Shown here: in pieces, positions 6,403 to 52,968 of the stretch | How positions within the stretch are numbered: position 1 is the first letter of the stretch | Layout: each line of letters begins with the position of its first letter | Assembly: GCA_041750915.1 (NCBI GenBank) | Contig: JBGSYJ010000069.1 | Location: forward strand, 4,946-68,945 | Length of the DNA stretch: 64,000 nt | Direction: 5' to 3' | Source of the DNA: Thermoanaerobaculia bacterium | Lineage (GTDB): Bacteria > Acidobacteriota > Thermoanaerobaculia > Gp7-AA8 | Position numbers and translations under genes: made by a program | Notes under the pieces: model-generated | What the model saw: the letters and a program-made list of their open reading frames with translations, nothing else | Told to the model about the DNA's origin: nothing | The model's database searches: none

Positions 6403-6453
6403 TACTAGCAAACCATTTTCTCGTTCCGGGCGTACAATCATCAGGGAGCCGTC

Positions 6454-11384: not shown

Positions 11385-11397
11385 GTGTAGCTCCGCC

Positions 11398-12080: not shown

Positions 12081-12093
12081 AAGTCGCGCGACC

Positions 12094-29603: not shown

Positions 29604-30977
29604 ATGCGAGCACCGATTCTCTTCATCCCTGGTTTCTCCGCAACCGAGTTGCGGGAGCCGGGAGGCAGACTCGTCTATCCGCCATCGATGCAGACGCTCG
29701 CCGATCCGAAGCGGAAGGCGCGGTTCATCCGGAACGTTCTCGACTCAGACGCCCTCGTTGCCGGCGAGCCGATCCGCGACGTCTTCTTCGGGCTCGCGAA
29801 ACAGGCGCAGTCGCTTTATGACGTGCTCAGACTTTACGGCTACTCGACCGCGAATCGCGACGAGTTCATCGCCGTCGGCTGGGACTGGCGCAGGGCGATC
29901 GATGACGACGCTGTAACCCGCGATCTCGACGCTGCGCTGGCGTCGCTGGCGCAGGCAGGAAAAGTCATCGTGATCGCGCACTCGGCCGGGGGACTGTTGC
30001 TCCGGCGTTATCTCGAGCTCCATCCTCATCGCGCCGATTCCATCTCCCACATCGTCGGGTTCGGCGTTCCGTGGGGCGGAACGTTGAAAGCGTTCCGTTA
30101 CATCGCGAAGGGGGAGAAGTTCGGTTTCCTCTCGGCGAGCCTGAACGCGACGGAGACGCGCACGGTGATGCAGCATGCGCAGGCGGGCTACGACCTTCTC
30201 CCGCCGCCCGGCCTGGCGAACGCCGCCGCTGCTGACCTTCCCCCTCCGCTCGTCTTCGAAAATGGCGAGCCCGTCTCGCCGGCAGTCGCCGTGTCGTGGA
30301 TCCGCGCCGCCGACGCGGCGATCGTGCAGCCGATGGCCGGGCATGCAACCCGGCTCGTCCGGCTCCCGGAGATCACGCTTCCCGGCACCGCAACGCCTCC
30401 GATCACGAACGTCGTCGGCTTCGGAGCGACGACGGACGTCCGGGCGACGATCCGCGGTCCCGGCAAAGTCGATTTCGAAAAATCGGATGAAGGCGACGGC
30501 ACTGTACCTCTTGCTTCGGCACAATGGATTCGTGGGGCGGATGTGCGAACGTTTCACGTCCCGATCGGCGGCTATCCGACGGCCGGGATTCCGACGTATC
30601 ACGCCCAGCTGTGGGATGCGCCGCCGCTGCTCGAGATCTTCGACCAGTTGTTGCTCGGGATCGCTCCGGGTGCGTACGTTGCCGCCGCGCTCGACACCGA
30701 CGATGCTTCGGCCGGCGGCACGAATGGCCTTCGCGTCCGCATCGCCGCTGCCGCTCACAATGGCGCGCCTTTGCCGTTGCTGAAGGTCACGTTTCACGGT
30801 CTCCGGCAGAAGGTGACGAGATCGCTCACGAATCGCGTGCGAGCGACCGTTGAACTGCCGAAGTCCGTTCTGCCTCCTTATGCAGGGAGTCCCTTCGTCC
30901 GTTTCGAGGCAGTGCTTCAGTGGAGCAGCGGCAGCACGAAGGAAACCCGCGAGCTCCCCCTGATCTACCGCAGGTGA
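29604..30977 (+). CDS. Alpha/beta-hydrolase, lipase-like (PGAP1/LCAT-like)
   Basis: PILFIPGFSATEL; VIVIAHSAGGLL nucleophile elbow. I chose the start at MRAPILF. Confidence 0.7.
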   Translation: MRAPILFIPGFSATELREPGGRLVYPPSMQTLADPKRKARFIRNVLDSDALVAGEPIRDVFFGLAKQAQSLYDVLRLYGYSTANRDEFIAVGWDWRRAIDDDAVTRDLDAALASLAQAGKVIVIAHSAGGLLLRRYLELHPHRADSISHIVGFGVPWGGTLKAFRYIAKGEKFGFLSASLNATETRTVMQHAQAGYDLLPPPGLANAAAADLPPPLVFENGEPVSPAVAVSWIRAADAAIVQPMAGHATRLVRLPEITLPGTATPPITNVVGFGATTDVRATIRGPGKVDFEKSDEGDGTVPLASAQWIRGADVRTFHVPIGGYPTAGIPTYHAQLWDAPPLLEIFDQLLLGIAPGAYVAAALDTDDASAGGTNGLRVRIAAAAHNGAPLPLLKVTFHGLRQKVTRSLTNRVRATVELPKSVLPPYAGSPFVRFEAVLQWSSGSTKETRELPLIYRR

Positions 30978-31046
30978 ATGACCGGTGGATCGAGACTCAG
31001 AAGCAATGGCCTCGAGCTAAGGCGCGAAGGTTCATACGCGGGGCCC

Positions 31047-33668
31047 TCAGAAATTCACTGAGATTCGCGAGTAGAGGAACCGGCCATTCATCCCGAACGG
31101 GGAATTCCTCGGGTAGGTGAAGATCCCGAGGTTGGCGTCCGGCCCGATATTCTCATCGGGAAATGTGTCGAAGATGTTCTGGCCGCCGACCGCCACGGTG
31201 TATCGATCCAGTTTGTAAGAGAGCTCCAGATCCGTCACCCATTCCTGCCCGAATGTCTGATCGGACGCAGGGGGATTGGTGAAACTGCAGTACTCTCCAT
31301 AGCGGCTCGTGCGAATGTTTCCGCCCAGCCTGCTTCGGTTCCAGTCTGCCGACAGCCGTACGTTGTCTTCCGGTTGGGCACATTCAGTAAGCCGTCGGAC
31401 CACGCGATCGAACAGGACCGCTTCGAATCCAGCCAGCTGAGGAGGCGTGTCGGCGATCCTGACCACGTCAGTCTCGTTGCGGTTGTAGCCCCCGGAAAGC
31501 GTGAAGTTCCCCAGGGCGGCGGTATTCAGCTGCCACGTGGAAACCAGATCGAAGCCCGTCGTTTCGGTGTCGATGGCATTGGTGAAAAAGCGCCCGCCAT
31601 TGGCTCCCAGGGGGCGAAGGAGATCTGCGATGCGGTCTCCGGTGAAGTTTCCGGACAGGACGATCCGATCGTCTATGTCGATTCGATAGACATCCACCGC
31701 GACCTCGAACGTGGGGGTCGGATCCCACACGACGCCCGCGCTGAGCTGAGTCGATTCTTCGGGACGAAGGGGTTGCGCTCCGAGAGCCTGCGCCTGTGGG
31801 CTTCCGACCGTGAAGGTCGCGACTTCGAATGGTGTGAGCACTCCTGCCAGGTTCAGAAACGTTGTGCTGGTACTCGAGAAGAATGACTGGCCCAGGGACG
31901 GAGCGCGGAAGCCGGTGCTCGCCGAGCCGCGAAACACCACTCTGTCGACCGGTTCGACACGGACCGTTAGCTTTCCGTCGCTGGTGCTGCCGAAGTCATC
32001 GAAATCTTCGTATCGCGCCGCCACACCCAGGCGAAGGCGCGCCAGCACATCCCCCTCGACGTCGACATAGATCGCCTTGCTGTTTCGCGACGTGTTGACG
32101 GCGTTCGACGGCCTGTACCCTGGAAACACCTGTGCGCCGATCTCGGAACGGCCTCCTGCCTGGTTGGGGATCCCGCCGTCGCGATAGGAGTCCGGCTCGC
32201 CTGCAATCTGCTCGAAGCCCTCGCGACGGAACTCGATTCCCGCGGCGACGTTGAGGGGACCCGCCAGTCCAACCTCGTAAGGGCGAGTGATGTCGAAGTT
32301 CCCGATCAAGTGATCGAACTCGAGCGAGCCGGCGTAGAACTCCGTCTTGTTCGGTGGGATGGTCGGACCAAGCGAGGTGTTGAGCGTGTTCGACAGATTG
32401 AAATCGAAAGTGTTCCTTCCGTACTGGCCGCTCAGGTCGTAGAACCACCCCATCATCGTTCCCCGATTCCCGGCCGTGAAGGACGTGTCATTGACCTCGG
32501 GCTCGATGAGGGGCAGGAATCCGAGCGGGTAGATTTCGGGCCGGTTCCTCGCGTCGAGGGCGCGGCGGTAGAACCCACCGTGAGAACCTTCACGCCGGCT
32601 GTATCCGCCAAAAGCGTAGAGGACGTTCGAGCCCTCGACGTTGAGCGGAAGCAGGCCGTGCAGAAACAGCATGGCGTCCTGCGCTTCGGAGTCGCCCCAG
32701 TGATGGTTGGGCTGCGGTACGGCATTGCTGCCGCCATCTCCCGGTGTGACCTGGTCCCTGGGGTCATTCCCCGCCCGGTTCGTCTCACCGCGATCTCGAT
32801 ACTCGACCGTCATGAAGAGCGAGCCGTTGTTGGCGAAGCCGAAGCCTTTGCTCAGACCGATGTCGATCAGCTCACCGTCGCCGTGAGTCGTTGCCCCGCC
32901 TTTTAGGTTCAGGGTCCAGGGAGAGGAACCCGATTTTAGCACCAGGTTGATGACGCCGGCGATGGCATCCGAGCCATACTGGGCGGAAGCTCCATCCCGG
33001 AGGACCTCCACGGTTTCGAGAGCCGAGGACGGAATCGCATTCAGGTCCACGCCGGTCGAGCCGCGGCCGACCGAGTTGTTCACGTTGACCAGAGCGCTGT
33101 TGTGCCGGCGCTTGCCATTGATCAGAACGAGCAGTTGGTCGGGCCCCAGTCCCCGAAGGGTGGCAGGGCGGACCGAGTCGGTGCCGTCGGTGATCGTCGG
33201 ACGCGGGAAATTGAACGACGGTGCGAGCGCCTGAATGATCTGGCTGGTCTCACTCGCCCCGGTCGTTTCCAGTTGCTCCTCAGTGAGCACGTCGACAGGA
33301 ACGGCCTTCTCGTTCGCGGTGCCGATTGCTCTCGAGCCGACAGTGATCTCTTGCCCGAACGCGACCACCAGGGAGAAGTCGCGCTGCACCGTTCCGCTCG
33401 CTACCCTCACCTGCGAAGTCTGGGTTTGAAGGCTCTGGAACGTTACGGACACCGCAACGGTCTGGCCGACGGCTGAAGAGGGCAGCGAGATCCTGTAACG
33501 CCCCGAGCTGTCTGTGGTGGCGATCAGGCCTAGAGAATCGACCGAGACCGTCGCTCCCGGTAGCGACGCACCGTCCGCTCGCGTGGTGACCACACCCTCG
33601 ATCTGCTGTGCGGCGAGAGGAGACCCGAGACAAAGCCCGAAAATAAAGAATCGCGCGAGACGCCTCAT
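31047..33668 (-). CDS. TonB-dependent receptor with an N-terminal carboxypeptidase-regulatory-like domain
   Basis: Signal peptide, CarbopepD_reg (IEGVVTTRADGASLPGATVSV...GRYRI), plug, 22-strand barrel, C-terminal YSRISVNF. Confidence 0.9.
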   Translation of the reverse strand: MRRLARFFIFGLCLGSPLAAQQIEGVVTTRADGASLPGATVSVDSLGLIATTDSSGRYRISLPSSAVGQTVAVSVTFQSLQTQTSQVRVASGTVQRDFSLVVAFGQEITVGSRAIGTANEKAVPVDVLTEEQLETTGASETSQIIQALAPSFNFPRPTITDGTDSVRPATLRGLGPDQLLVLINGKRRHNSALVNVNNSVGRGSTGVDLNAIPSSALETVEVLRDGASAQYGSDAIAGVINLVLKSGSSPWTLNLKGGATTHGDGELIDIGLSKGFGFANNGSLFMTVEYRDRGETNRAGNDPRDQVTPGDGGSNAVPQPNHHWGDSEAQDAMLFLHGLLPLNVEGSNVLYAFGGYSRREGSHGGFYRRALDARNRPEIYPLGFLPLIEPEVNDTSFTAGNRGTMMGWFYDLSGQYGRNTFDFNLSNTLNTSLGPTIPPNKTEFYAGSLEFDHLIGNFDITRPYEVGLAGPLNVAAGIEFRREGFEQIAGEPDSYRDGGIPNQAGGRSEIGAQVFPGYRPSNAVNTSRNSKAIYVDVEGDVLARLRLGVAARYEDFDDFGSTSDGKLTVRVEPVDRVVFRGSASTGFRAPSLGQSFFSSTSTTFLNLAGVLTPFEVATFTVGSPQAQALGAQPLRPEESTQLSAGVVWDPTPTFEVAVDVYRIDIDDRIVLSGNFTGDRIADLLRPLGANGGRFFTNAIDTETTGFDLVSTWQLNTAALGNFTLSGGYNRNETDVVRIADTPPQLAGFEAVLFDRVVRRLTECAQPEDNVRLSADWNRSRLGGNIRTSRYGEYCSFTNPPASDQTFGQEWVTDLELSYKLDRYTVAVGGQNIFDTFPDENIGPDANLGIFTYPRNSPFGMNGRFLYSRISVNF

Positions 33669-33717
33669 CAGTTAGCTCCTTTTTTGAATGCTCGAGTATG
33701 AGCCTCCGTCGTAGGGA

Positions 33718-34155
33718 GTGTCAACGTCATGGCCGTCGCGCTCATCGTCGTCGGCGAAGTCGGGTTTGGTCGCGCAGAGGGTTCACATCCGCGGCGCAGT
33801 CGGCGCGGTCGTCAGCTCGCTCGCCAACGACATCCTGATGCCGATCATCAGCCTCGTTCTACCGGCGGGGGACTGGCGTGAGGCGAAGTACGTGCTTTCC
33901 AGCACGACGGACGCCGCGGGAGTAGTCTCCGAGAGCGCGATTCTCTACGGCCAGTTCGCGGCCGCCGTGCTCGACTTCATCATCATCTCGTTCGTTGTAT
34001 TCATCATCGTGAAGCGCCTCGTCAAGCCGGTGCCCGAGCCGGCGACTCCGCAGATGCGGAAGTGTCCCGAGTGTTTCGAGATGATCCCCGAGGATGCCCG
34101 CCGGTGTCGCGCGTGCACTTCGACCATCGGGGCGGGATCGCAGCTCGCGACCTGA
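33718..34155 (+). pseudogene. 5'-truncated duplicate of mscL (matches 47195..47629 from VGAVVSSLANDIL onward)
   Basis: Nucleotide identity with the intact mscL begins about 90 nt into that gene. The N-terminal amphipathic helix and TM1 are replaced by unrelated sequence. Confidence 0.6.
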
Positions 34156-34421
34156 CGAGCCCCTGCCGCTATTCGAATGTCGACGCGTTCGCGATGCGCT
34201 TCATACTCGAGGTATTCGGCGCCGTCGAAGTAGCGCTCGAAGAATTTGCGAACATCATCACTTCCGGATCGATGGACTTTTCCCCCGCTTGCAGAGACGA
34301 AGGTTTCGCCCGTAGTCTCGCCGATCCAGGCGGAGTCGCGTTCGAAGTGCGCGCGGATTTCCTCTGCGTGCATCTTCAGAAGCGATCGGACTGCGTCATT
34401 GTCCGCGACCTGATCGTTCAA
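33945..34421 (-). pseudogene. Fragment duplicating the C-terminal NTF2-like domain of the 47803..49515 gene
   Basis: AMRSLLKMHAEEIR.HFERD.AWIG.TTGETFVSASGGK..RSGSDDVR.FFERYFDGAEYLEYE is shared with the 570-aa protein; a deletion lies in between. Confidence 0.5.
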
Positions 34422-34666
34422 AGTAAAGAATTTGGGTCGCAGCTTCAGTCGCGCATGCGACCGCCGGTTCTTGGGGCCGCCGGAGCCAATGGGTCAGACG
34501 TCGTCTGACCCTTCGAACTTCACGAAGCAATCAGGCACAGACATCAGCACAGCTTCGAGGGTCGGCCTGACGGGCTGGCGTTGCCTCTCTGGAAGCTCCC
34601 GCCTGCGAACGCGCAACGTCACCAGCCGCTGCATCCTCTCTCTGAACTCCACGCTCCCGAGATTGA

Positions 34667-35185
34667 TTTGCCCGACGACCGATTCCCACTGTTGTACGCG
34701 GCGCCTCGGCCATAAGCGACGACCTGCTCAATATCTACAGAGCTCTGGACGCGCTATCTCCCGGCTTTGGAAAAGTCGAGCGAAGAAGTGACGTTTCCAG
34801 AGACGAATTCCTGCGCGACTACTACTCGCGAAATCGTCCCGTGATTCTGACGCGCCTGATGCAGAACTGGAAGGCAATGTCCCTCTGGACACCTGAATAC
34901 CTCAAAGCACGTTATGGAAGCGAAACCGTTGAAGTCACAGCGAATCGTGATTCAGATCCGGACTACGAGCTGAATCTGGCCCGGCACCGTCGCGAAATTC
35001 TCTTCGGAGATTATGTCGACATGGTGACGACAGGGGGCGAAACGAATGACTACTATCTGGTCGCGAGAAATGAAGTTCTCGAACATGAGCTGCCGCTCCA
35101 CAACGCTGTAGTTCTCACCATTCCGAGCCGCGGCCGGATCGGAACCCGCCGGGCCGCCGTTCGTAGACTTGATATGATCCGATGA
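34667..35185 (+). pseudogene. Truncated cupin-like (JmjC-type) gene remnant
   Basis: The open frame ...DEFLRDYYSRNRPVILTRLMQNWKAMSLWTPEYLKARYG... reads like a cupin-4 N-terminus. It has no canonical start before the GTG at 34841 and ends after about 170 aa. Confidence 0.4.
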
Positions 35186-36135
35186 TGATGGTACCAGGTC
35201 GCGTCGAGATTCCACGGCCCGAGGGATGGTGGGAGGAAGTTCGCGAGGTTCTCGAGTATCCGTTTCTCAGGATCGGCGAGACCGACCTGACACTCGCCCG
35301 GGTCGGCTATTTCATTCTGCTGATCGTAGCGCTTTTCTGGGTGGTGCGGCTGCTCAAGCGCTGGCTCATCAATCGATTTCTTGCGCGCAGCCGCATGGAC
35401 CTGCACGCCCGGCAAGCGGCGGGAACGCTCTTCGGCTACGTGGTGCTCCTCCTCGGCTTCATGGTCATCCTGCAGACGGTGGGGATCGACCTGACTACGC
35501 TGCACGTCGTCGCGGGAGCGGTCGGCGTGGGCATCGGACTCGGCCTTCAGGATGTCGCGAACAATTTCATCAGCGGTCTGATCATTCTGTTCGAGCGGCC
35601 GATCAAGGTCGGCGACAGGATCCTCGTGGGCGATGTCGAAGGCCAGGTCCAGAACATCCGCGCGCGAAGCACGACTGTCATTACGAACGACAACGTCGCG
35701 GTGATCGTGCCGAATTCGAAGTTGATCACCGACAACGTCGTGAACTGGAGCTACAACGACCCTCGAATCCGATTCCGCATTCCGGTCGGTGTCGCCTACG
35801 GATCCGATCCGGAGCTCGTGCTGCGCGCGCTACTCGAAGCTGCCGCGGAGATCGACGATGTGCTGGCTGATCCTGAACCGACCGCGGTCTTCGTGGAGTT
35901 CGGGGACAGCTCGCTGAACTTCGAGCTTCGCGCGTGGACCACGACCCTCCTTCATCTGAAAGCCCGATTCGTGAGCCAGCTGAACCTTTCCATTCACCGC
36001 AAGCTGGCCCATTACGAACTCAGCGTGCCATTCCCGCAGCGCGATCTTCACTTCCGCGGCGGGGAGGTGAACGTCGTTCTGAAGCGTGACGACGCCAACG
36101 CTTCTCCCGCGATGCCCGGACCTGAGAAGGCATGA
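35182..36135 (+). CDS. mscS: Small-conductance mechanosensitive channel (MscS family)
   Basis: GLQDVANNFISGLIILFERPIKVGDRILVGDVEGQVQNI is the MscS signature. Confidence 0.85.
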   Translation: MMMVPGRVEIPRPEGWWEEVREVLEYPFLRIGETDLTLARVGYFILLIVALFWVVRLLKRWLINRFLARSRMDLHARQAAGTLFGYVVLLLGFMVILQTVGIDLTTLHVVAGAVGVGIGLGLQDVANNFISGLIILFERPIKVGDRILVGDVEGQVQNIRARSTTVITNDNVAVIVPNSKLITDNVVNWSYNDPRIRFRIPVGVAYGSDPELVLRALLEAAAEIDDVLADPEPTAVFVEFGDSSLNFELRAWTTTLLHLKARFVSQLNLSIHRKLAHYELSVPFPQRDLHFRGGEVNVVLKRDDANASPAMPGPEKA

Positions 36136-38108
36136 CTTTTCGCCCCTGGCACCGGTTCAAATTCGAGATTGAACGGCTGATCCTGCGCAGTCCGTTTCAC
36201 CGTCTCGCGGTCATCGCGATGGCCGTTGGCGCAGTCTCGTGCGCGGGCGGGTATCTCGCCTATTTCTATGCCGGCGGATTCGCCGACGTTCCCGATGCGG
36301 TCTGGTGGGCGTTTCTGCGTCTCACTGACCCTGGCTACCTCGGCGACGATGTCGGCAACGTCGCACGCGTCATTTCGACGACCCTCACGATTCTCGGATA
36401 CGTTCTGTTTCTGGGCGCGCTCATCGCGATCATGACCCAGAGTCTCAATCAGTCCATCCAGCGGCTGCAGCAGGGACTGACTCCGATCGTCGAGAACAAC
36501 CACTTCCTGATTCTAGGCTGGACCAGCACGACGCCGACTCTCGTGGAGGAGCTGATCCTCTCCGAGGGCCGCGTGAAGCGGTTTCTGAAGCTGCGAGGTA
36601 CGGGGCGTCTTCGGATCGTGATTCTGATCGAGGACCTCGGGCCGGAAATCGTCCAGGACCTCCAGGACCGGCTTGGAAGCCACTGGAACTCGCGTGAGAT
36701 CATCGTGCGCTCGGGCACTCCGCTGCGCCTCGAGCATCTCGAGCGCGTCGATTTCCTGCACGCCGCCGCAATCATGTTGCCGCTCCCCGATGTCAGGACC
36801 GAGAACACGTTCGCTCGCGACGAGCGGACGATCAAGGTGCTGCTTTCGATCTCGAGCTCGGCGCGCCAGAAGAAGGCTGATGAGGTTCCGATGATGGTCG
36901 CAGAATTGATGGACGGGCGGAACGTCTCTCTGGCTCAGCGCGCCTACGGTGGCCCGATCGAGATCCTGGCGGGCGACCTGCTGGTCAGCCGGCTGATTGC
37001 GCAGAACGTCCGGCACGCGGGACTCTCGCCGGTCTACGCGGAGCTGCTCTCGCACTCGGAAGGGAATGAGATTTACCTGCGGGAGTGGCCGGAGCTCGCA
37101 GGCCGGCGCTTCGATGAAGTAGGCGATGCTTTTTCTCACGCGATCGTGCTGGGTGTGCTTCGAATGTCAGGCAGGGGCTTCGATCCGTTGATGCTGCCGG
37201 AGGGCGACCTGGTCATCGAAGCGGGCGACCGCCTCGTGATGGTCGCACAGAGTTATGAAGAGAGTGCGCCGGAGCGCCACTGGAGCGTCAGACCTCGGGC
37301 CGCGGCACCGCATTCGTATCCGCTGTCACAGAAGCGAAGCCGGCGTGTTCTTCTGCTGGGATGGAACCACAAGGTGCCAGCGCTCGTGGCGGAGCTCGCG
37401 CGGTACGGATCCGAGTCGTTCGAAGTCGACGTGGTGTCGCTCGTGAAGCCGGAGGATCGCGCGACTCATCTTCGCCGGCACGGGATCGGCGATGACGCGC
37501 TCGAGCTCCGTAATCTGGAAGCCGACTTCACATCGAGCGTCGAGCTGCGAGGCCTGAAGCCCGAGGCGTACGACAATGTGGTGATCCTCGCGAGCGACCG
37601 GATGGATTCCGAGGTGGAGAGCGATGCCCGCACGATTCTGGGGTTTCTGCTGCTCGACGAGATCCTCACGGGACGCGCTGTTCGTCCGGAAGTTCTGGTG
37701 GAACTGATGGACGCGGACAACGTTCCACTTCTCCAGGGGCGCGCGGACGTGCTGATCAGTCCATTGATTCTCGCGCATATGCTCTCGCAGGTCGCGCTGC
37801 GCCGGGAGCTGCGTGTCGTCTTTGACGAGATGTTCGGCTCCACGGGCGTCGAGATCTCGCTCCGTCCGGCGAGCGATGTGATTTCTCCCGGCGAGACGGT
37901 CGAGTGGGGCGATCTGTCGCGCAGAGTCGAATGCGGCCGCGAGATCGCACTGGGAATGCGCAGAGGCGGCGAGCTGCCGAAGATCAATCCTCCGCGCAAC
38001 AGCCGCTGGAGCTTTTCGGAGGGTGATGAATTGCTGGTGCTCACCCGCAACCTGTCTGCGGGCGCGGAGGTTCCTTCGGCGACGAGTCGCCGGTCTTCCA
38101 GAAAATGA
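36132..38108 (+). CDS. CASTOR/POLLUX-like ion channel with two RCK/TrkA-N-like domains
   Basis: N-terminal transmembrane helices with a pore-like segment, then NHFLILGWTSTTPTLVEEL and RVLLLGWNHKVPALVAEL RCK starts. Four nucleotides overlap mscS. Confidence 0.7.
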   Translation: MTFRPWHRFKFEIERLILRSPFHRLAVIAMAVGAVSCAGGYLAYFYAGGFADVPDAVWWAFLRLTDPGYLGDDVGNVARVISTTLTILGYVLFLGALIAIMTQSLNQSIQRLQQGLTPIVENNHFLILGWTSTTPTLVEELILSEGRVKRFLKLRGTGRLRIVILIEDLGPEIVQDLQDRLGSHWNSREIIVRSGTPLRLEHLERVDFLHAAAIMLPLPDVRTENTFARDERTIKVLLSISSSARQKKADEVPMMVAELMDGRNVSLAQRAYGGPIEILAGDLLVSRLIAQNVRHAGLSPVYAELLSHSEGNEIYLREWPELAGRRFDEVGDAFSHAIVLGVLRMSGRGFDPLMLPEGDLVIEAGDRLVMVAQSYEESAPERHWSVRPRAAAPHSYPLSQKRSRRVLLLGWNHKVPALVAELARYGSESFEVDVVSLVKPEDRATHLRRHGIGDDALELRNLEADFTSSVELRGLKPEAYDNVVILASDRMDSEVESDARTILGFLLLDEILTGRAVRPEVLVELMDADNVPLLQGRADVLISPLILAHMLSQVALRRELRVVFDEMFGSTGVEISLRPASDVISPGETVEWGDLSRRVECGREIALGMRRGGELPKINPPRNSRWSFSEGDELLVLTRNLSAGAEVPSATSRRSSRK

Positions 38109-38186
38109 ACAACGTGTGTTTCGTAGGGGCGGCCCGCACCTACAAGACACGTAAAGAGGCGAGCACGTCGAAGGGATGGAGAAGCA

Positions 38187-38216
38187 CGTCATCCTTCGCT
38201 TCGCTCAGGATGACAC
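38187..38216. repeat. Half copy of the type I element (right arm only)
   Basis: GTCATCC-TTCGCTTCGCTCAGGATGACAC. Confidence 0.4.
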
Positions 38217-38289
38217 ATCGGTTCATTCCTCTCGAAAATGAAGGCGTTCATCGTCAGGCTCTAATGAACGCCGCAAAACGCAAGTTGTG

Positions 38290-38470
38290 GCCAATCGGGC
38301 AAATGTCATCCCGAGCGGGTGGGTGTGTGGGCAAGCGAGGGATCTCCGGCGATGGTACATAGTTGCCTACTGCCGCCGTCACTCTTTCCCTTAATGAATC
38401 TCGTATGTACCATCGCCGGAGATCCCTCGCCCCTCGCACCCACCCGACCAGGCTCGGGATGACACTTGGT
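38290..38470. repeat. MITE-like palindromic element, type II, copy B
   Basis: GTCATCCCGAGCGGGTGGGTGTGTGGGCAAGCGAGGGATCTCCGGCGATGGTACATAG ... TATGTACCATCGCCGGAGATCCCTCGCCCCTCGCACCCACCCGACCAGGCTCGGGATGAC. Confidence 0.6.
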
Positions 38471-38535
38471 TCAATTTATCGCCACAATGGAGTTCGCCAT
38501 TCATCCGCTCGGGATGACAGCGCCCTGTCACATCT

Positions 38536-39246
38536 CTACGCCAGCCGCGCGCGGAGTGACGAAACGCGGCTGCGGCCGACGGGCAGGACGGTGCCGTCGT
38601 CGAGCTCGACCGAGTAGCGCGAGCCTTCGTGGGCCACGAGCCGACGGATACGGGCGACGTCGGCGATAAAGGATTTGTGAATTCGCTCGAAGCGCTGCGG
38701 CAGCATCCCTTCCAGCCGGTCGAGCATCTTGTCGTGAGGAACGACCTCGCCGCCGGTCAGCACGAGCTCGGAGCGCGTGCCGGCGCCGCGGATCCAGGCG
38801 ATCCTTCCGATCTCGATGAACTCGAGCCAGCCGTCTCGCCGTACACCGATGTGCTCGACCGGCCTCTCGGTGCGTGATGCAGGTGCGAGAACGCGCTGGA
38901 ATGCCTGCGCCAGCCGCTCGCGGCTGAACGGTTTCGGGATGTAATCACGAATGCCGAGACTGAACGCTTCGAGGGCGCGGTCGCGGTCGGCGGAGATCAC
39001 GATCGTGTCGAACGATCGCGTCGAAAGATCGCGAAGAAGATCGAACCCGTCCTCACCTTCGAGATTGAGATCGAGGATCAGAACATCGGGTGCGCGGAGC
39101 CGGATCGCTTCGCGTGCATCGTCGATGCGCGACGCGACGGAGGTCTCGCCCGCGAGCGGCCCAAGGATCTCGGTCGCGAGGCGGGCTATTCTGCGCGCGA
39201 TCACCGCCTCGTCCTCCGCGATCAGAATGCGGAGTGGTTCGCTCAT
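38536..39246 (-). CDS. LytR/AlgR-family response regulator (REC + LytTR)
   Basis: ILIAEDEAVIARRI...DVLILDLNLEGEDGFDLL is the REC domain; the C-terminal half is a LytTR DNA-binding domain. The start at MSEPLRIL overlaps the kinase stop codon (ATGA). Confidence 0.85.
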   Translation of the reverse strand: MSEPLRILIAEDEAVIARRIARLATEILGPLAGETSVASRIDDAREAIRLRAPDVLILDLNLEGEDGFDLLRDLSTRSFDTIVISADRDRALEAFSLGIRDYIPKPFSRERLAQAFQRVLAPASRTERPVEHIGVRRDGWLEFIEIGRIAWIRGAGTRSELVLTGGEVVPHDKMLDRLEGMLPQRFERIHKSFIADVARIRRLVAHEGSRYSVELDDGTVLPVGRSRVSSLRARLA

Positions 39247-40997
39247 CCCGACGGCACCTCGATCACCGTGCGCCAGATCGAACCGACCGGCGCTGCCTCG
39301 AGGCTCCATCTTCCGGGAAAGCTCTCCTCGAGACGCGTGCGGATGTAGCGGTGCCCCAGTCCCTCGCCCCGCCTGCCGGCCTCGGTGCGGAGCGGCGTCT
39401 CCAGGGTGTATCGGTCGACGCCGCCCGAGCAGGCCCGGCGAAGCGTGAACGTCACGAGCTCTCCCTCGTAGCGGTTGTGCGTGATCGCATTCTCGAGGAG
39501 CGTGTGAAATGTTGCGGGCGGGACGCTCGCGTCGAGGTCGATGCCTTCCGTCGCCAGCTCGAACTTCGTTCCTTTCCGGCACGCCATCACTTCGAGATGC
39601 GAGCGGCACAGCTCGAGCTCGCGCCGGACGGAGATCAGCTTCTCGTTCGCGAATTCGCCGAGGATCCTCAGCTCGTCGGCGAGCGCCTGAAGGAACCGCA
39701 GGCCGGCGGGCGGATCTTCCTCGAGCCACTCCATCACGGCGGTGAGGGTGTTCATGAGAAAGTGCGGCTGAATCGACTTCCGCAGCAGCTCGATCTCCAG
39801 TCGCGCCGCGCGCAGAAGAGCGCTCTCGTGCTCACGTTTCTGCCGTTTCATTCCGATCGCCATCGAGACGAGGAGCGATGCGACCAGGACGGCGAAGGCG
39901 ATGAAGAAGGTGGAGTCACTGAATCCGTATCCTCCCCTCGCGAGAGAGACGGTGAGTGCGCCGAGCCCGATCGCGGGCGGAAAGACTTCGGAGCGCCGCG
40001 CGAGGACTGCTTCGACGATCGCCGCTGATGAGATCACGATCGAGGCAGTGAACATCAGCAGGCACCGCACGTCGAATCCGCCGCCGAGGAGGAGACACGC
40101 GACGAGAATCGCCGCGGATGCCGCGCCCCAGAGTTTCCGATGCGGGATCCGAAGATCCGTCACGAAGAAAAACGGCAGGAGCCATGCGACGGCGAACGTG
40201 AGCGTCGCGATGACGTTCAGCCGGATGAACTGCAGGTCCCATGTGATGCCGAAGACCCACCGCCACATCTCGGCGAGCACGAGGAGAGCGGACGCGAAGC
40301 AAAGGACTGCGAACAGTGCGTCGCGCTCGCGGCGCGTGGCAAGCCAGATCGAGAAAAAGTACGCGCCGACGACGAAGAAGACGCCGAGGCCGGCGGTGGG
40401 GACGAGCTGCGACCGGATCCTCGAGCGGATCATCGGCACCGTCTCTCCGATTGCGATTGCGTGAAAGAAGCCGTCGAGCTGAGGGACGCCGGGAGAAGCG
40501 CGGATCACAAGTGTGTGTGGCCCGGGCATAGCCATGCCAGGGTCGATCGCGTAGAAGTTGTCGAGAGGTCCGGCGGCCATCGCTCTGCCATCCGGGCCGA
40601 TCGTTCCATTCCTTCCGATGAGCGCTCCGTCCCAGTACACCTCGTGAGCGGCGAGCAGGGAGACATAGATCGCGAGCGATGCGTTCTCCGCCGGGACCAC
40701 AATCTCAACGGTCTTCCTGATCCAGATCGTCGGAACTGAGGGAAGGTCGTACAGGAGCCTCTCGGTCCATCCCGCGCTGTCGTCTTCGATCACCCAGGAA
40801 GGGTCGTCTCCAATCTTCACCTCGCCGAAGTCGTACGCGGTTGCCGTTCCCTCGAAGCGATCGGAGATCGCTCTGTACGGAAAATCCTGCGCGGCCCAGA
40901 TAGCGACAGCAAGGATGACGAGGTAGAGCGGAAGGCGCCAGCGCACCACCCGATTGTGCGCCCGGCTCGCTCTTCGCGCAACGGCTGAGACGTTCAC
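39243..40997 (-). CDS. LytS-type sensor histidine kinase with a 7TMR-DISM N-terminal sensor
   Basis: Periplasmic 7TMR-DISM-like region plus seven transmembrane helices, then His_kinase (IQPHFLMNTL) and the HATPase. Confidence 0.8.
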   Translation of the reverse strand: MNVSAVARRASRAHNRVVRWRLPLYLVILAVAIWAAQDFPYRAISDRFEGTATAYDFGEVKIGDDPSWVIEDDSAGWTERLLYDLPSVPTIWIRKTVEIVVPAENASLAIYVSLLAAHEVYWDGALIGRNGTIGPDGRAMAAGPLDNFYAIDPGMAMPGPHTLVIRASPGVPQLDGFFHAIAIGETVPMIRSRIRSQLVPTAGLGVFFVVGAYFFSIWLATRRERDALFAVLCFASALLVLAEMWRWVFGITWDLQFIRLNVIATLTFAVAWLLPFFFVTDLRIPHRKLWGAASAAILVACLLLGGGFDVRCLLMFTASIVISSAAIVEAVLARRSEVFPPAIGLGALTVSLARGGYGFSDSTFFIAFAVLVASLLVSMAIGMKRQKREHESALLRAARLEIELLRKSIQPHFLMNTLTAVMEWLEEDPPAGLRFLQALADELRILGEFANEKLISVRRELELCRSHLEVMACRKGTKFELATEGIDLDASVPPATFHTLLENAITHNRYEGELVTFTLRRACSGGVDRYTLETPLRTEAGRRGEGLGHRYIRTRLEESFPGRWSLEAAPVGSIWRTVIEVPSG

Positions 40998-41063
40998 TGC
41001 TTTTGCGAGATGTTCACTCGTTGGGAGTGGCGCGATCCTCGTCCGTTTTGGAGAATGACATTC

Positions 41064-42365
41064 ATGAAGAGACTCGCCATTCTCCTGTCCGCCTCACTTC
41101 TCGCCACCTCCGCCGTTCACCCGGCCGACCCGCCGCTCGCGCCGCGGATCGACGCATATCTGCGGCCCTACATCGACCAGAACGCATTCAGCGGAGTCGT
41201 TTTCGTCGCGAAGGGCGATGAGGTATTGTTCGAGAAGGCCTACGGGATGGCGAACTACGAGTTCGGCGTGCCGAACCGGCCCGACACGAGATTCGCGATC
41301 GCCTCGATCACCAAGCGTTTCACCGGCATCATCCTGCTGAAGCTCATCGCGGCTGAGAAGCTGGCACTTGACGACAAACTGTCGAAGTGGGCTCCAGATT
41401 TTCCATCAGCCGAGAAGATCACGGTGGAGCACCTCGCGAGACACCGCTCGGGTGTGCGTGACCCGGATGATCTCCGCCGGCTCATCCGGATGAATCACTC
41501 CGCCGCAGCCGTCGTCGATCACCTGAAGGAGAAGCCCCTCGGCAGCGAGCCGGGCGAGACGTATTCGTATACGACGGCCAACTACGCAATCCTCGGGCAC
41601 ATCATCGAGAGGGTGACGGGAAAGAGCTTCGACCAGGTCGTGCATCAGTACGTGTACGAGCCGGCAGGAATGAAGGACTCTGGGGAGCTCACGACGACGA
41701 CTGTCGTGCCGCGGCTCGCGACCGGCTATATGCCCGACCCATATGGCCGCGGCATTTCGGTTTGCGGGCCGGAGGATACTTCATGGAAGATCGCAGGCGG
41801 CTCGTCGTACTCGACCGCTCGCGACCTTCACCGGTTTGCGCGCGCCTTCTACCGCGCCAAGCTCGGCGTCGACCCCGCGGAGCTCGGGGGAACCTCGGAG
41901 GTCCACGGCCGACAGGCGTACTCATCGAACGGGAGCTTTCCGGGCGCCGGTGCGAACCTCCTCTACTTCCCCGAGGAAGAAGTCACACTGGTCGTTCTGA
42001 CGAACAACTACGCGACGATCGCACAGACAGCCACGCGCGACATCGCCGGAACGTACTTCGGCGAGAAAGTAGCCGATCCGACCGTGAAGCTCGCGAGCAA
42101 GCCGGCGCCGATGGACCCGAGAGTCTTCGGCGCGTACGAAGTCGAAGGGCGGACGTGGACGTTTACGATCGCGCTGGAGCAGGGCGCTCCCGTGCTCTCG
42201 TACAACGCGATGCGCAAGAGCGCTCTCCGGCGGATCGACGGCGACACCTGGTTCTCGCCGCTGGACTGGGCGAAATTCCGCCTGCGCTTCGACGAAGCGG
42301 GTCAATTCGAAGGGGCGATGATTCTGCCCGGAGACGATGAGGGTCTGAAGCTGATACGCAGGTAG
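41064..42365 (+). CDS. Beta-lactamase/penicillin-binding-protein family serine hydrolase (class C-like)
   Basis: Signal peptide and the ASITK (SxxK) motif. Confidence 0.8.
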   Translation: MKRLAILLSASLLATSAVHPADPPLAPRIDAYLRPYIDQNAFSGVVFVAKGDEVLFEKAYGMANYEFGVPNRPDTRFAIASITKRFTGIILLKLIAAEKLALDDKLSKWAPDFPSAEKITVEHLARHRSGVRDPDDLRRLIRMNHSAAAVVDHLKEKPLGSEPGETYSYTTANYAILGHIIERVTGKSFDQVVHQYVYEPAGMKDSGELTTTTVVPRLATGYMPDPYGRGISVCGPEDTSWKIAGGSSYSTARDLHRFARAFYRAKLGVDPAELGGTSEVHGRQAYSSNGSFPGAGANLLYFPEEEVTLVVLTNNYATIAQTATRDIAGTYFGEKVADPTVKLASKPAPMDPRVFGAYEVEGRTWTFTIALEQGAPVLSYNAMRKSALRRIDGDTWFSPLDWAKFRLRFDEAGQFEGAMILPGDDEGLKLIRR

Positions 42366-42559
42366 AGTCGAAAAAGTACGACTCCTGAAGTCCGCACCGA
42401 CGTCCAAGGCGCCCGTCGATCTCGATCCTTCTCCCCGTTCGCACGGGGAGGGAATGCGCGCAGCGCATGTTCGTCCTGTGAACTCCTACTGGAGTAGTTG
42501 ACAATCCTTCCCTGAAACCCTATCTTGTGAATCGTCGTACTACACGAGTAGGAGCTGCG

Positions 42560-47194: not shown

Positions 47195-47629
47195 ATGATT
47201 GACGAGTTCCGCGGATTCCTCACCAAGACCAACGCGCTCGCCCTGGCAATCGGCGTCATCATCGGTGGCGCCGTCGGTGCCGTCGTCAGCTCGCTCGCCA
47301 ACGACATCCTGATGCCGATCATCAGCCTCGTTCTACCGGCGGGGGACTGGCGTGAGGCGAAGTACGTGCTTTCCAGCACGACGGACGCCGCGGGAGTAGT
47401 CTCAGAGAGCGCGATTCTCTACGGCCAGTTCGCGGCCGCCGTGCTCGACTTCATCATCATCTCGTTCGTTGTCTTCATCATCGTGAAGCGCCTCGTCAAG
47501 CCGGCGCCTGAACCGGCGACTCCGCAGATGCGAAAGTGTCCCGAGTGTCTCGAGATGATCCCGGAGGAGGCCCGCCGCTGCCGCGCGTGCACGTCAACCA
47601 TCGCACCGGGATCGCAGCCAGCGGTCTGA
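47195..47629 (+). CDS. mscL: Large-conductance mechanosensitive channel with a C-terminal zinc-ribbon tail
   Basis: MIDEFRGFLTKTNALALAIGVIIGGAVGAVVSSLANDILMPIISL is canonical MscL. The C-terminal CPEC...CRAC ribbon is additional. Confidence 0.85.
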   Translation: MIDEFRGFLTKTNALALAIGVIIGGAVGAVVSSLANDILMPIISLVLPAGDWREAKYVLSSTTDAAGVVSESAILYGQFAAAVLDFIIISFVVFIIVKRLVKPAPEPATPQMRKCPECLEMIPEEARRCRACTSTIAPGSQPAV

Positions 47630-47666
47630 CGCCACCAGCGCGTCAACTCAAGACCTGCGCAGGAGC

Positions 47667-47757
47667 AAGTGTCATCCTGAGCGTAGCGAAGGATCCCCAT
47701 ACTATTGGCTGGATCGCAGGGCTTCAGGGGATCCTTCGCTGCGCTCAGGATGACACC
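47667..47757. repeat. Type I palindromic element, copy f
   Basis: Arm, loop and the left flank GCGCAGGAGCAAGTGTCATCC are shared with copy h. Confidence 0.7.
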
Positions 47758-47802
47758 TTGTGGCTCGAGGTGACGCCATTGCGTCCTGAAGCCCTCTCTG
47801 TA

Positions 47803-49515
47803 TCACTCGAACGTCGACGCGTTCGCGACGCGCTTCCATGCGCCGTTGTGCCGCTGATAGATCATGATTCCGGCGTAGACGAAGTTCCGCTCGGTGTCAG
47901 GGCCTTCCGCTGACCGGACTACCCGTCTGACCTTCGTGCGCGACAGTACCCAACCCATCGATCCATCGTCCGAGAGGCGAACGACCGGTTCTTCGAGATT
48001 CTCGTACTCGAGGTACTCGGCGCCGTCGAAGTAGCGCTCGAAGAACCTGCGGACGTCATCACTGCCCGAGCGCTGGATCTTTCCTCCGCTCGCCGATACA
48101 AAGGTTTCGCCCGTCGTGTCGCCGATCCAGGCGGCGTCGCGTTCGAAGTGTGAGCGGATTTCCTCTGCGTGCATCTTCAGCAGCGAGCGCATCGCGTCGT
48201 CGCCCGCGACCTGGTCGTTCGGCGGCAGATCGATCGGCAAACGAAGGATGACTGTGTCTTTCAGTTTCCCGATCGGCCAGATCTTCCCATCAGCGAACGA
48301 TCGCAGCTGGCTCCCGGCGACGTAAACCAGGTCGTTTCCGACGATAGTTCCTGTGAGTGGAAAGTCATAAAGAGGATGGTCCTGCTCGAGGACGGCGAAC
48401 CGGGTCACCCGCGACATGTCGTCACTGAGCCAGGCGCGCACGACGCGGCGCGGATCTGAGCCCTGAACGCCGATGAGGCTCCCTTCGTGAAAATAAAGCC
48501 CGTCGATGGCGCCGAGCGTCGCTCCATGAGGAACGTCGATCAGCGTTCGTTTTTTTGTCGCGATGTCGAAGCCGACGACGCCATCGAAATGCGAGGCGGC
48601 GAAGAGCGTCCTGCCGTCGGGTGTCATCGTGATGCCGTTGAACCAGGAGCCGTCCGGCGGGACAAACTGCTCGACCGACTGCGAGCCTGCACGCAGACGG
48701 AAGAGCCCATCCCCTCCGGCGGTGGCGTAAACATCGCCATTCGGCACGAGAACCAGGTCGTTGAAGCAGAACGGCCGTTCGGCGGAGCCGTGGGGGCCGG
48801 GATATTTCGCGATCAACTTCCCGCTGTCGAGCTCGAATCGGAAGATCGCGGCCTGTCCTTTCGTCGGAATGTGCGGAACTTCCATGGGCGGGCTATCGAT
48901 GTTGCAGGAGTTCGCCCAGAGCTCGCGCCGGGAAGGGTCGATCTTCATCCCCAGCACTCCCCAGAGTCCGTCGCGGCGTGAGGGGATGAAGTCGGACACT
49001 TCGCCGCTGGCTGACACGCGAACGATCTTGCTTTTGTACATGCTGCCGACATAGAAGTTGCCGCCCTTCGCGTCAAGGGCGATGTTTTCGGGGATCAGAT
49101 CCTTCTCGAGGAGAAACTCCGTCTCGCTGCGGATGATGGGCGCGGTCCGCGCGCGCATGAGACCTGCCAGCTTCTGGAACCGCGGATCGCTCCTCACCGT
49201 GTCCCACGCAGCGTCGTGCTCGTCGAATCTCATTCCGAAGTCGGTTGCGGTGGCCAGCTCGCGCAACGCATCGTCGACTCTTCCGGCCCGGACGAGGGCG
49301 CGGGAGAGTGCCAGTCGCGTCGATACGGTGCGGGGGAGAACGTTAAGGACCCGCCGGTAGAGATCCGCAGCTTCGATGAAGCGGCCTTGTTCGTACTCTT
49401 TGCCCGCGCGCTGTGACAGCTCGATGGGGTTCTCGGTCGCTGGTTTCTCCTCGCCCGTTGCGGCGGGGGTAAAGGCCGTGACGAGTACGAGTGAAACGAG
49501 CAGAGTGCGCAGCAT
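47803..49515 (-). CDS. Secreted protein with TPR repeats, a beta-propeller (SMP-30/gluconolactonase- or NHL-like) and a C-terminal NTF2-like domain
   Basis: Signal peptide; TPR in the first ~100 aa; a repetitive propeller-like middle; the C-terminal 130 aa are homologous to the 46564 gene product. Confidence 0.7.
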   Translation of the reverse strand: MLRTLLVSLVLVTAFTPAATGEEKPATENPIELSQRAGKEYEQGRFIEAADLYRRVLNVLPRTVSTRLALSRALVRAGRVDDALRELATATDFGMRFDEHDAAWDTVRSDPRFQKLAGLMRARTAPIIRSETEFLLEKDLIPENIALDAKGGNFYVGSMYKSKIVRVSASGEVSDFIPSRRDGLWGVLGMKIDPSRRELWANSCNIDSPPMEVPHIPTKGQAAIFRFELDSGKLIAKYPGPHGSAERPFCFNDLVLVPNGDVYATAGGDGLFRLRAGSQSVEQFVPPDGSWFNGITMTPDGRTLFAASHFDGVVGFDIATKKRTLIDVPHGATLGAIDGLYFHEGSLIGVQGSDPRRVVRAWLSDDMSRVTRFAVLEQDHPLYDFPLTGTIVGNDLVYVAGSQLRSFADGKIWPIGKLKDTVILRLPIDLPPNDQVAGDDAMRSLLKMHAEEIRSHFERDAAWIGDTTGETFVSASGGKIQRSGSDDVRRFFERYFDGAEYLEYENLEEPVVRLSDDGSMGWVLSRTKVRRVVRSAEGPDTERNFVYAGIMIYQRHNGAWKRVANASTFE

Positions 49516-49589
49516 GATCCCTCCGTTGATTCAGGTGTGGCGTTTGTTGTAACGCACGTCCGCCGGTCGCGGGAAGGGGGTTCACCGTT

Positions 49590-49810
49590 TTGTGATTGCA
49601 GTGAGTAGCGACTTCCCTCTCCCCGCGAAGTCGGGGAGAGGGTGGCGCGCGGGAGTCGAGACGACTTTTCGGTTCCGACAGTTCCGCGCGCCGGGAGAGG
49701 GGCGTCCAGGGCTTGCAGCGACTTACTCCAGTTGGCAACATTGGAATGGCCTGCTCGGCCCCTCACCCCTTGCCCCTCTCCCCGTTCACACGGGGAGAGG
49801 GGAATCGCGC
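49590..49810. repeat. 210-bp multi-hairpin repeat, copy 2 (inverted relative to 29335-29540)
   Basis: The reverse complement aligns with copy 1 over about 200 bp, including both terminal hairpins. Confidence 0.65.
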
Positions 49811-49820
49811 GACGTCGACG

Positions 49821-49872
49821 TGGGCGGTTCCACTCAGAACTCACAACTCAGAACTCACAACTCGGCTTACAG
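49821..49872. repeat. Heptad repeat TCCACTCAGAACTCACAACTCAGAACTCACAACTC (H4), one arm of the H5 family
   Basis: A 34-nt block identical to the reverse complement of the 5' arm of the 60715-60786 hairpin. Confidence 0.55.
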
Positions 49873-51579: not shown

Positions 51580-51710
51580 GAGCCTGTCCTCAGAAATTTC
51601 TCAACGGCATTTCATAGAGCCCTCAGGACTCCGGGCCGGAGACGAACTACCTTGTTTGTCGAGCGGTAGGTGGATTGTACCGCACGATGAGCGAGGAAAA
51701 GGAGCGACCC

Positions 51711-52784
51711 ATGTCGGTTCAAACCATAGTGAAAAGAAGCGCCGAGGATACATTCGCTGAGAGGATGCGGCTTCATCTGACGGGCGCTGCGGTATCGATG
51801 ATGACGAGCGTCGGATATCAGACGGGCCTCTTTGAAAAGATGGCGGAGCTGCCGCCTTCGACCAGCCTCGAGATTGCGGCTGCTGCCGGGCTTCAGGAGC
51901 GGTACGTTCGGGAGTGGCTCTCGGCGATGGCGTCAGCCGGCGTTCTTACCTACGACCCCGCGGATGGAACCTTCGCGCTTCCAGCTTCCCATGTCCGCAC
52001 TCTGACTCAAATGGGCGGGGCTGAGAACGCCGGCCCGACGGCCCGGCTGCTCGCGTCCATCGGAGCGACGGAGCATCGTCTGATCAGTGCTTTCCGCGAT
52101 GGTGGCGGGGTGAGCTACGGGCAGTTCCGAAACCTCGAAGCGATTATCGCGGAGACGGGAGATCCGGTTCTCTGTTCACGGCTGGATGCGATCGTGGAAG
52201 TCTCCCCATCGCTCCGTGAGCGGTTGCGGGCTGGGATCGAAGTGCTGGACCTCGGTTGCGGGAGAGGGCGGGCGATGATGCTTCTCGCGCGGCGGTTTCC
52301 GCGCAGCCGCTTCGTCGGCATCGACTTGTCGCTATCGTCCATTCAGGCCGCCCGTCAGGAAGCCGAGGAGCATGGACTTCAGAACGTCTCCTTCCAGGTC
52401 GGCGATGCAGCGGTGCTTTCGGATGAAGGCCGATTCGGTCTGGTTCTGACATTCAATTCCATGCATGAGCAGGCTCGACCCGAGGCGGTGCTGCGGGCGA
52501 TCTATCGGTCGATGAAAAAGGGAGCGATGTATCTGATGATCGAGCCCGATGGCTCGTCGCATCTCGAGGAGAATCTCGACATGCCGTTGTCCACAGTGCT
52601 CTACACGATCTCGTGCTTCCTCTCGCTTCCGGTCTCCCATGCAGCGGGAGGCGAAGGGCTCGGGATGCTGTGGGGCCGGGAGAATGCAGTCGCGATGCTT
52701 CGGGCGACAGGCTTTTCCGAGATCCGGGTCGAGCCGCTGGCGGACGACCCGATCAATGCGTGCTTCGTCTCGACGAAGCTTTAG
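51711..52784 (+). CDS. Class I SAM-dependent methyltransferase with an N-terminal wHTH/dimerisation domain
   Basis: VLDLGCGRGRAMMLL (motif I); O-methyltransferase-like N-terminal domain. Confidence 0.8.
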   Translation: MSVQTIVKRSAEDTFAERMRLHLTGAAVSMMTSVGYQTGLFEKMAELPPSTSLEIAAAAGLQERYVREWLSAMASAGVLTYDPADGTFALPASHVRTLTQMGGAENAGPTARLLASIGATEHRLISAFRDGGGVSYGQFRNLEAIIAETGDPVLCSRLDAIVEVSPSLRERLRAGIEVLDLGCGRGRAMMLLARRFPRSRFVGIDLSLSSIQAARQEAEEHGLQNVSFQVGDAAVLSDEGRFGLVLTFNSMHEQARPEAVLRAIYRSMKKGAMYLMIEPDGSSHLEENLDMPLSTVLYTISCFLSLPVSHAAGGEGLGMLWGRENAVAMLRATGFSEIRVEPLADDPINACFVSTKL

Positions 52785-52880
52785 GGGGGAAGTACCTGAA
52801 CGGAGATCTGTCGGATTCGTCATCCCGAGCAAGCTCCCACCCGCACGACCAGGCTGCTAATGAACCCTACCGGCGAATGA

Positions 52881-52968
52881 GTGTCATCCTGTGCGCAGCG
52901 AAGGATCCCACTCCGCGAGGCGGTAAGGCAGGTCTTCAGGGGATCCTTCGCTGCGCTCAGGATGACAC
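52881..52968. repeat. Type I palindromic element, copy g
   Basis: GTGTCATCCTGTGCGCAGCGAAGGATCCC...GGGGATCCTTCGCTGCGCTCAGGATGACAC. Further GTCATCCCGAGC-type relics follow, up to about 53040. Confidence 0.7.

Follow-up and report, generated by a model that had tools for sequence, protein, structure and literature searches.

In bacteria, duplicated or acquired DNA is eroded by deletions (deletional bias), which leaves pseudogene remnants. In the inner-membrane channel MscL, the hydrophobic gate (L19 and V23 in E. coli) sits in the first half of the first transmembrane segment (TM1). Here we describe the interval at 33.7-35.2 kb of a 64,000-nucleotide (nt) stretch of DNA from a Thermoanaerobaculia bacterium (GenBank assembly GCA_041750915.1, contig JBGSYJ010000069.1, positions 4,946 to 68,945 of the forward strand), hereafter the window. 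The 1.5 kb separating a TonB-dependent receptor gene from an MscS channel gene was found to be a patchwork of three truncated gene pieces, one of which is a 5'-truncated copy of mscL, here called mscL'. The intact, resident mscL is located at 47.2 kb, where it converges with a gene of 570 amino acids (aa) carrying TPR and SnoaL-like domains. In our judgement the interval is probably non-functional debris, namely an eroded second copy of this convergent pair of mscL and TPR/SnoaL genes together with an unrelated Cupin_8 piece of low guanine-plus-cytosine (GC) content. It is an instance of well-known phenomena (pseudogene remnants, ectopic gene conversion and insertion of a miniature inverted-repeat transposable element, MITE) and not a new system.

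As in other eroded pseudogene remnants, the pieces are truncated, lack starts, include one frameshifting deletion and are clustered in a lineage-variable intergenic region, and one of them has a foreign-looking GC content. They differ from typical remnants in that the divergence is mostly synonymous, so the erosion is recent relative to the divergence. A sharply bounded stretch of near-identity (~220 nt) within flanks diverging by ~14% resembles the ectopic gene conversion seen between dispersed paralogues or between a pseudogene and its gene; unlike in the known cases, there is one tract in one pair of copies, from which the direction of transfer cannot be read. The resemblance to the silent pilS cassettes and the expressed pilE gene of Neisseria is one of layout only, in that a promoterless-looking, 5'-truncated copy would exchange sequence with an expressed one. 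Silent cassettes are several and variable and diversify a surface protein, whereas the window holds a single extra copy, the tract homogenises, the product is an inner-membrane channel rather than a surface antigen, and no recombination-guiding element was seen at mscL'. Compared with canonical MscL (E. coli and M. tuberculosis, PF01741), the copy keeps the loop, the second transmembrane segment (TM2) and the family's own C-terminal tail but is without the S1 helix and the first half of TM1; in the copy and the resident protein alike, a four-cysteine (Cys4) ribbon takes the place of the helical tail of E. coli MscL.

A BLASTN comparison of positions 33000-36000 with the whole window gave three non-self matches, and the same three pairs were recovered by a repeat finder (families D1, D5 and D17). 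The longest match aligned 33786-34157 with 47260-47631 over 372 nt at 93.3% identity without gaps (E 1e-160). Together with the Pfam result, this confirmed a first-pass annotation, made from the sequence alone, in which 33718-34155 was taken for a partial duplicate of mscL (47195..47629). The duplication had been placed from codon ~30 onward; the base-by-base alignment moves the left homology boundary to 33783-33786, which corresponds to resident codon 23. Left of 33786 the local alignment score was 21, compared with a mean of 17 and a maximum of 27 for shuffled sequences, and is not significant. A MAFFT alignment of this part was judged not trustworthy. The three BLASTN matches are not of low complexity. 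The copy is, as is characteristic of a pseudogene fragment, a truncated sequence with significant nucleotide homology to an intact gene elsewhere.

At the protein level, the open reading frame (ORF) of 145 aa covers positions 22-118 of the Pfam MscL profile (123 positions), while the resident gene covers positions 1-119. The 22 new N-terminal residues of the copy (beginning MSTSWPSR) are Ser/Arg-rich, hydrophilic and unique to it. They stand in place of resident residues 1-22, which, from the alignment to E. coli MscL and established knowledge, we take to be the S1 helix and the first half of TM1. In the Kyte-Doolittle (KD) hydropathy profile the main TM1 peak of 2.34 is gone, the weaker peak of 1.88 belonging to the kept half of TM1 stays, and the hydrophilic replacement residues form no intact alternative TM1. 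The earlier statement that TM1 had been replaced is thus accurate for the lost N-terminus and the main peak, but only the first half of the segment is absent. Gly24 of resident MscL (G26 in E. coli) is changed to Arg. From codon 23 to the stop the protein is identical or nearly identical to the resident one, and all four Cys of the C-terminal ribbon are kept. Of the parts expected in a functional MscL, the periplasmic loop, TM2 and the C-terminal domain are present in the ORF, and the S1 helix and a complete TM1 including the gate are missing. Wherever it occurs on the NCBI and Logan contigs, this ORF has been annotated as a gene (P0008).

The two remaining BLASTN matches lead to the 570-aa gene (47803-49515), which, according to the ORF list and Pfam, carries TPR repeats and a C-terminal SnoaL-like domain. 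Positions 34173-34202 matched 47807-47836 (30 nt, 93%) and positions 34201-34419 matched 48002-48220 (219 nt, 85.8%, E 2e-69), which sets the right boundary of the duplicated region at 34419. The copy has no counterpart of resident positions 47837-48001, which belong to the SnoaL domain, and its minus-strand frame changes at the resulting junction. The first-pass annotation had read the minus-strand ORF 33945-34421 as a duplicate of an NTF2-like domain with an internal deletion. The homology and the deletion are real, but only 34173-34419 (the first ~83 codons) is SnoaL-derived, and the rest of the ORF is the antisense of mscL' without a Pfam match. Frameshifted and reduced to 72 of 570 codons, the SnoaL piece is non-functional.

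Substitutions were counted by the Nei-Gojobori method outside the central, apparently converted tract. For the mscL' flanks and the SnoaL piece combined, 35.5 synonymous differences at 84.5 sites and 17.5 nonsynonymous differences at 275.5 sites gave a synonymous divergence (dS) of 0.62 and a ratio of nonsynonymous to synonymous divergence (dN/dS) of 0.108 (95% bootstrap 0.053-0.194); the SnoaL piece alone gave a dS of 0.70 and a dN/dS of 0.084. By our own estimate from the combined counts, neutral evolution since the split would yield a pairwise dN/dS of ~0.5 and ~70 nonsynonymous differences. No indels were present in the aligned 372 + 219 nt, despite ~14% divergence. The signs of relaxed constraint since copying that mark a pseudogene (dN/dS near 1, indels and stops) are therefore absent. 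A frameshifted scrap of 72 codons cannot be under present selection, so the low dN/dS of the SnoaL piece is inherited; as this piece shows the same low value, neither the low dN/dS of mscL' nor its open frame argues for function. The pattern of substitutions indicates that most of the divergence between the copy and the resident locus must have arisen while both were intact, selected genes, with truncation coming late. The interval had been described as a decayed copy of the 47.2-48.3 kb region plus another gene fragment; the partial copy and the additional fragment are there, but neutral decay in place is at odds with the dN/dS of 0.11 and the mosaic identity.

The 25 mismatches of mscL' are distributed unevenly, with 5 in 33790-33807, 18 in 34031-34151 and 2 (at 33930 and 33999) in 33808-34030. 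The identity is accordingly mosaic: the central 223 nt contain 2 mismatches and the remaining 149 nt contain 23, that is, 99% identity as opposed to ~86% in the flanks. When mismatches were permuted within codon-position classes, such a stretch occurred in 0 of 100,000 trials (P<1e-5). The tract is 83-84% identical to the orthologues of two relatives (L016 and L017), like the rest of the gene. Local constraint therefore does not explain it, since against these outgroups the tract is no more conserved than its flanks. Contiguous low divergence of this kind is what gene conversion leaves behind, and the simplest reading of 33808-34030 is a recent ectopic conversion between direct repeats 13.5 kb apart. 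Its direction is not determinable, as both copies share the same derived states relative to the outgroups.

The history of the resident locus was traced by comparison with L016 (contig JBGTDX010000073.1 of GCA_041748075.1), which is syntenic with the window around resident mscL and shares the order LCAT ... BlaI/BlaR ... hydrolase ... DUF4440-mscL ... large kinase. Given this synteny, the mscL at 47.2 kb is the orthologue. Behind its stop codon lies a 151-nt element with terminal inverted repeats that is absent from both the copy and L016. It is short, non-coding and present in three full copies in the window (47631-47781, 52843-52993 and 63108-63258), as expected of a MITE or repetitive extragenic palindromic (REP) element, and of the two mscL loci only the resident one carries it. 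The gap between mscL and the 570-aa gene measures 15-17 nt in the copy, 16 nt in L016 and 175 nt at the resident locus. L016 has no MITE at this place, and mscL is followed there directly by 80 nt that survive from the 3' end of the 570-aa gene; the two genes were therefore neighbours already in the ancestral state, and the MITE of the window is a derived insertion. The copy preserves the MITE-free state, which would place the insertion after the resident locus split from the copy and from L016. The terminal inverted repeats of the MITE, GGCGTCAAC...GTGACGCC, flank a GTGTCATCCTGAGCG...CGCTCAGGATGACAC palindrome, and shorter palindromic cores of the element were found at 7251, 28120, 38176, 44315 and 46439. 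Other palindromic families (CCCCTCTCCCCG...CGGGGAGAGGGG) occur at 29.3, 44.0, 49.6-49.8 and 54.5-55.0 kb.

In the 3' flank the copy and the resident locus are 86% identical, whereas either one is 64-77% identical to L016 or L017, and the copy and resident proteins share derived residues. The copy therefore came from this lineage or one closely related to it. Missing from L016 is an 11.4-kb block of the window (30971-42431) comprising the receptor, the fragments, MscS, a CASTOR-like channel, a LytTR regulator with a kinase and a beta-lactamase-like gene; the fragments thus lie in a stretch that varies between lineages. The block contains no integrase or transposase gene. A second block missing from L016 is 47883-52466 (4.6 kb), where the 570-aa gene is reduced to its 80-nt relic and a 369-aa gene to its 3' end. 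A scenario in which a 13.5-kb unit was duplicated in tandem and then lost reciprocally was considered and found to be unparsimonious, as nothing else between or beyond the copies is paralogous.

From these observations we infer an order of events in which erosion proceeded by deletion. The second copy would have originated either as a paralogous locus that was once intact or as DNA of a close relative, and purifying selection would have acted on it while most of its differences from the resident locus accumulated. Its late truncation would have come about by deletions that cost mscL its first 22 codons, took 165-167 nt out of the SnoaL domain and removed all that lay beyond. The MITE would have been inserted behind resident mscL after the lineage split and, more recently, ~220 nt in the middle of mscL' would have been homogenised with the resident gene by gene conversion.

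Other explanations were weighed against this history. The window is a metagenome-derived contig, and the fragments might have been joined by the assembler at shared repeats; contig L002 of run SRR28170462 (29509-33837 at 100%) does break at 33837, 30 nt inside the identical stretch, as a contig interrupted by a repeat would. The Logan contigs, which were built independently from the raw reads of runs SRR28170461 and SRR28170462, argue strongly against such a chimera. Contig L020, from the other run (SRR28170461), matches 33313-34250 at 99.9% and runs from left of the left junction through the whole of mscL' and the spacer to beyond the junction of the internal deletion, and contig L001 (SRR28170462, 34221-37246) spans the right junction, the cupin piece and MscS. 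The junctions coincide with the edges of homology rather than falling within shared sequence, and mismatches diagnostic of the copy adjoin them. They are not an assembly artefact, which makes a chimeric origin scarcely credible. A simple in-place duplication, the view taken in the first-pass annotation, with ~0.8 kb of the 47.2-48.2 kb region copied to 33.8 kb and decaying neutrally ever since, would explain why the copies lie in the same orientation 13.5 kb apart on one contig, why no outgroup is as close to the copy as the resident gene is, and why its ends are truncated and an internal deletion shifts the frame. Neutral decay, however, predicts a dN/dS of ~0.5 with scattered indels or stop codons. 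The values outside the tract (0.11 at a dS of 0.62) and in the dead SnoaL piece (0.08), and the lack of indels in 372 + 219 nt at ~14% divergence, render this scenario unlikely.

The truncated protein had also been proposed to act as a dominant-negative subunit. As a modified, dominant-negative or regulatory member of the resident pentamer, the 145-aa product would co-assemble through the loop, TM2, the zinc ribbon and what is left of TM1. No stop interrupts the frame before the native one, the public contigs carrying the ORF have it annotated as a gene, all invariant family residues from codon 23 onward are kept, and gene conversion would keep its core identical to that of the resident gene; the positive-inside N-terminus and the remaining hydrophobic segment (KD 1.88) could insert into the membrane. 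On the other hand, residues 1-22 are missing, and with them the S1 helix and the first half of TM1 with the gate, and Gly24 is an Arg. A consensus scan of 33300-35400, which may not fit this phylum, found no promoter-like site on the plus strand, and read-through transcription is not available because the neighbour 5' of mscL' is transcribed divergently. In a simple consensus scan, the only Shine-Dalgarno-like hexamer, AGGGAG, ends one base before the GTG of mscL' and so has no spacing, whereas GGGAGG lies 6 nt before the ATG of resident mscL. None of the full-length homologues inspected has a comparable N-terminus, and the equally low dN/dS of the dead adjoining SnoaL fragment points to an inherited rather than a current signal. 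Judged from these sequence features, expression of mscL' and a dominant-negative role are unlikely, and we consider a modified subunit highly improbable. Our assessment is even more sceptical of a further pair of roles, in which mscL' would serve as a silent-cassette recombination partner of resident mscL or be translated into a gate-less modulating subunit. An out-of-frame ORF of 50 aa at 33729-33881 (MAVALIVVGEVGF...) starts 10 nt after AGGGAG and so has a better ribosome-binding-site spacing than the mscL' start; it is probably spurious, and none of the Logan contigs covering it has an indel that would fuse it to the mscL frame.

Several observations count against the interpretation of the interval as eroded debris. 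The mscL' frame is intact to the same stop and its conserved residues are kept from codon 23, as they would be in a functional gene, and the promoter and ribosome-binding-site scans followed simple consensus rules that perhaps do not suit this phylum. No relative with the same receptor-MscS neighbourhood was found in a scan of genome contigs by MscS or in a scan of metagenomes by the receptor (best relatives at <=53% and <=43%, respectively), and the closest MscS homologues (84% and 70%) lie in other neighbourhoods. The source may have been either an in-genome paralogue or foreign DNA. At position 33930, contig L020 has the base of the resident gene, which may be a segregating variant or an effect of the path through the assembly graph, and the difference between assemblies could thus be an artefact rather than a real polymorphism.

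These findings mainly call for a correction of the public annotation: the 145-aa ORF at 33718-34155, called as a gene, is a 5'-truncated remnant, and the adjoining ORFs of 158 and 114 aa are fragments or artefacts. The locus further illustrates that in a young pseudogene neither an open frame nor a low dN/dS is proof of function, and it provides examples of the relative dating of a MITE insertion and of ectopic gene conversion, here in an uncultured bacterium for which the closest homologues with a name belong to Thermoanaerobaculia.

The Cys4 tail shared by both proteins has the motif CPEC-x10-CRxC, located at the C-terminus of resident MscL (47195-47629) and at 34060-34130 in the copy. The four Cys were invariant in 26/26 sequences of alignment A5 and in the other homologues inspected, so the ribbon, described as unusual in the first-pass annotation, proved to be nothing out of the ordinary for this MscL family. 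The family comprises >2000 proteins at E<=1e-10, and the few source names given for them are Thermoanaerobaculia. Solved MscL structures align only to about residue 122 and lack the Cys4 motif. The AlphaFold model of resident MscL is of low confidence (predicted local distance difference test score, pLDDT, 61) and places two short strands in the tail, which are compatible with a ribbon but prove nothing. Full-text literature searches turned up no publication that connects MscL with a zinc ribbon or finger.

The third piece belongs to the Cupin_8 family. The frame 34667-35185 matches positions 3-111 of 252 in the Pfam profile, in line with the first-pass description of a cupin/JmjC-like frame without a proper start or C-terminus, and the true homology is limited to 34721-35089. 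A database search with this frame found a 97%-identical protein on an ENA contig (L019), to which the DNA alignment is confined to 34721-35089 at 94.9%. Compared with longer homologues, ~55 residues are missing from the N-terminus of the piece, as is the entire beta-barrel half. The barrel with the Fe(II)-binding His-x-Asp/Glu...His motif that defines JmjC/Cupin_8 oxygenases is missing, because the fragment ends at profile position 111, before the barrel half present in the full-length homologues P0125 and P0126. The fragment has a GC content of 52%, compared with 61% for the window, and a dN/dS of 0.09 relative to the L019 gene, with both ends cut; tblastx found no parent copy inside the window. 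Contig L001 of run SRR28170462 lacks 34878-34886, an in-frame indel of 9 nt. The fuller gene on L019 is itself split into ORFs of 159 aa and 138 aa by a 1-nt indel. In another metagenome, a homologue with 80% identity lies inside a lanthipeptide-type cluster (L018, ENA ERZ25039469 contig_160651, 5400-15000) with several short leader-like ORFs, a LanC-like gene, Lant_dehydr_N/C and a carbamoyltransferase. By analogy, this context suggests that the Cupin_8 protein may be a peptide-modifying hydroxylase in its native setting.

Table 1. Features of the interval between the receptor and MscS genes, and of the resident mscL locus, in window coordinates.
Feature	Position	Strand	Remark
TonB-dependent receptor gene	31047-33668		left neighbour, divergent from mscL'
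Promoter-like site TTGACA-18-CATACT, for the TonB-dependent receptor gene	33695..33724	-	directly left of the duplicated segment
145-aa ORF	33718..34155	+	22 unrelated hydrophilic codons, then mscL codons 23-144
mscL', 5'-truncated copy of resident 47260-47631	33786..34157	+	25 mismatches, no indels
Putative gene-conversion tract in mscL'	33808..34030	.	2 mismatches/223 nt vs ~14% divergence on both sides
Spacer, 15 nt	34158..34172	.	matches the MITE-free intergenic state
3' end (last ~30 nt) of the 570-aa TPR/SnoaL gene	34173..34202	-	
Internal SnoaL-domain fragment of the 570-aa gene, 72 codons	34203..34419	-	out-of-frame join to the 34173-34202 piece
301-nt stretch without detected relative	34420..34720	.	
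Internal Cupin_8/JmjC fragment, 123 codons	34721..35089	+	
Region 5' of the MscS gene, 92 nt	35090..35181	.	holds a 43-nt hairpin motif
MscS-family gene	35182-36135		
Resident intact mscL, 144 aa	47195..47629	+	
MITE/REP element, 151 nt	47631..47781	.	after the resident mscL stop
Resident 570-aa TPR/SnoaL-like gene	47803..49515	-	convergent with mscL; source of both minus-strand fragments

The coordinates of all features are given in Table 1. For 34420-34720 no homologue was found in the window or in any fetched locus, and this stretch may be original intergenic DNA. Within 35090-35181 the only match in the window or the fetched loci was one 43-nt motif, and no Rfam family reached its gathering score over the whole window. 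The motif occurs twice in the window (35110-35151 and 6361-6401, 84% identical), 5' of the MscS gene and 5' of the ORF 6454-7194. It holds a GC-rich hairpin, which in the 6.4-kb copy reads CGGCGGAT-CGGA-ATCCGCCG. The MscS gene overlaps by 4 nt the start of a gene for a 658-aa CASTOR/POLLUX-like channel with an RCK domain (both genes together, 35182-38108). This overlap suggests that the two channels may be encoded in one operon; the MscS homologues most similar to this one (84% and 70%) occur elsewhere without a CASTOR/POLLUX-like partner.

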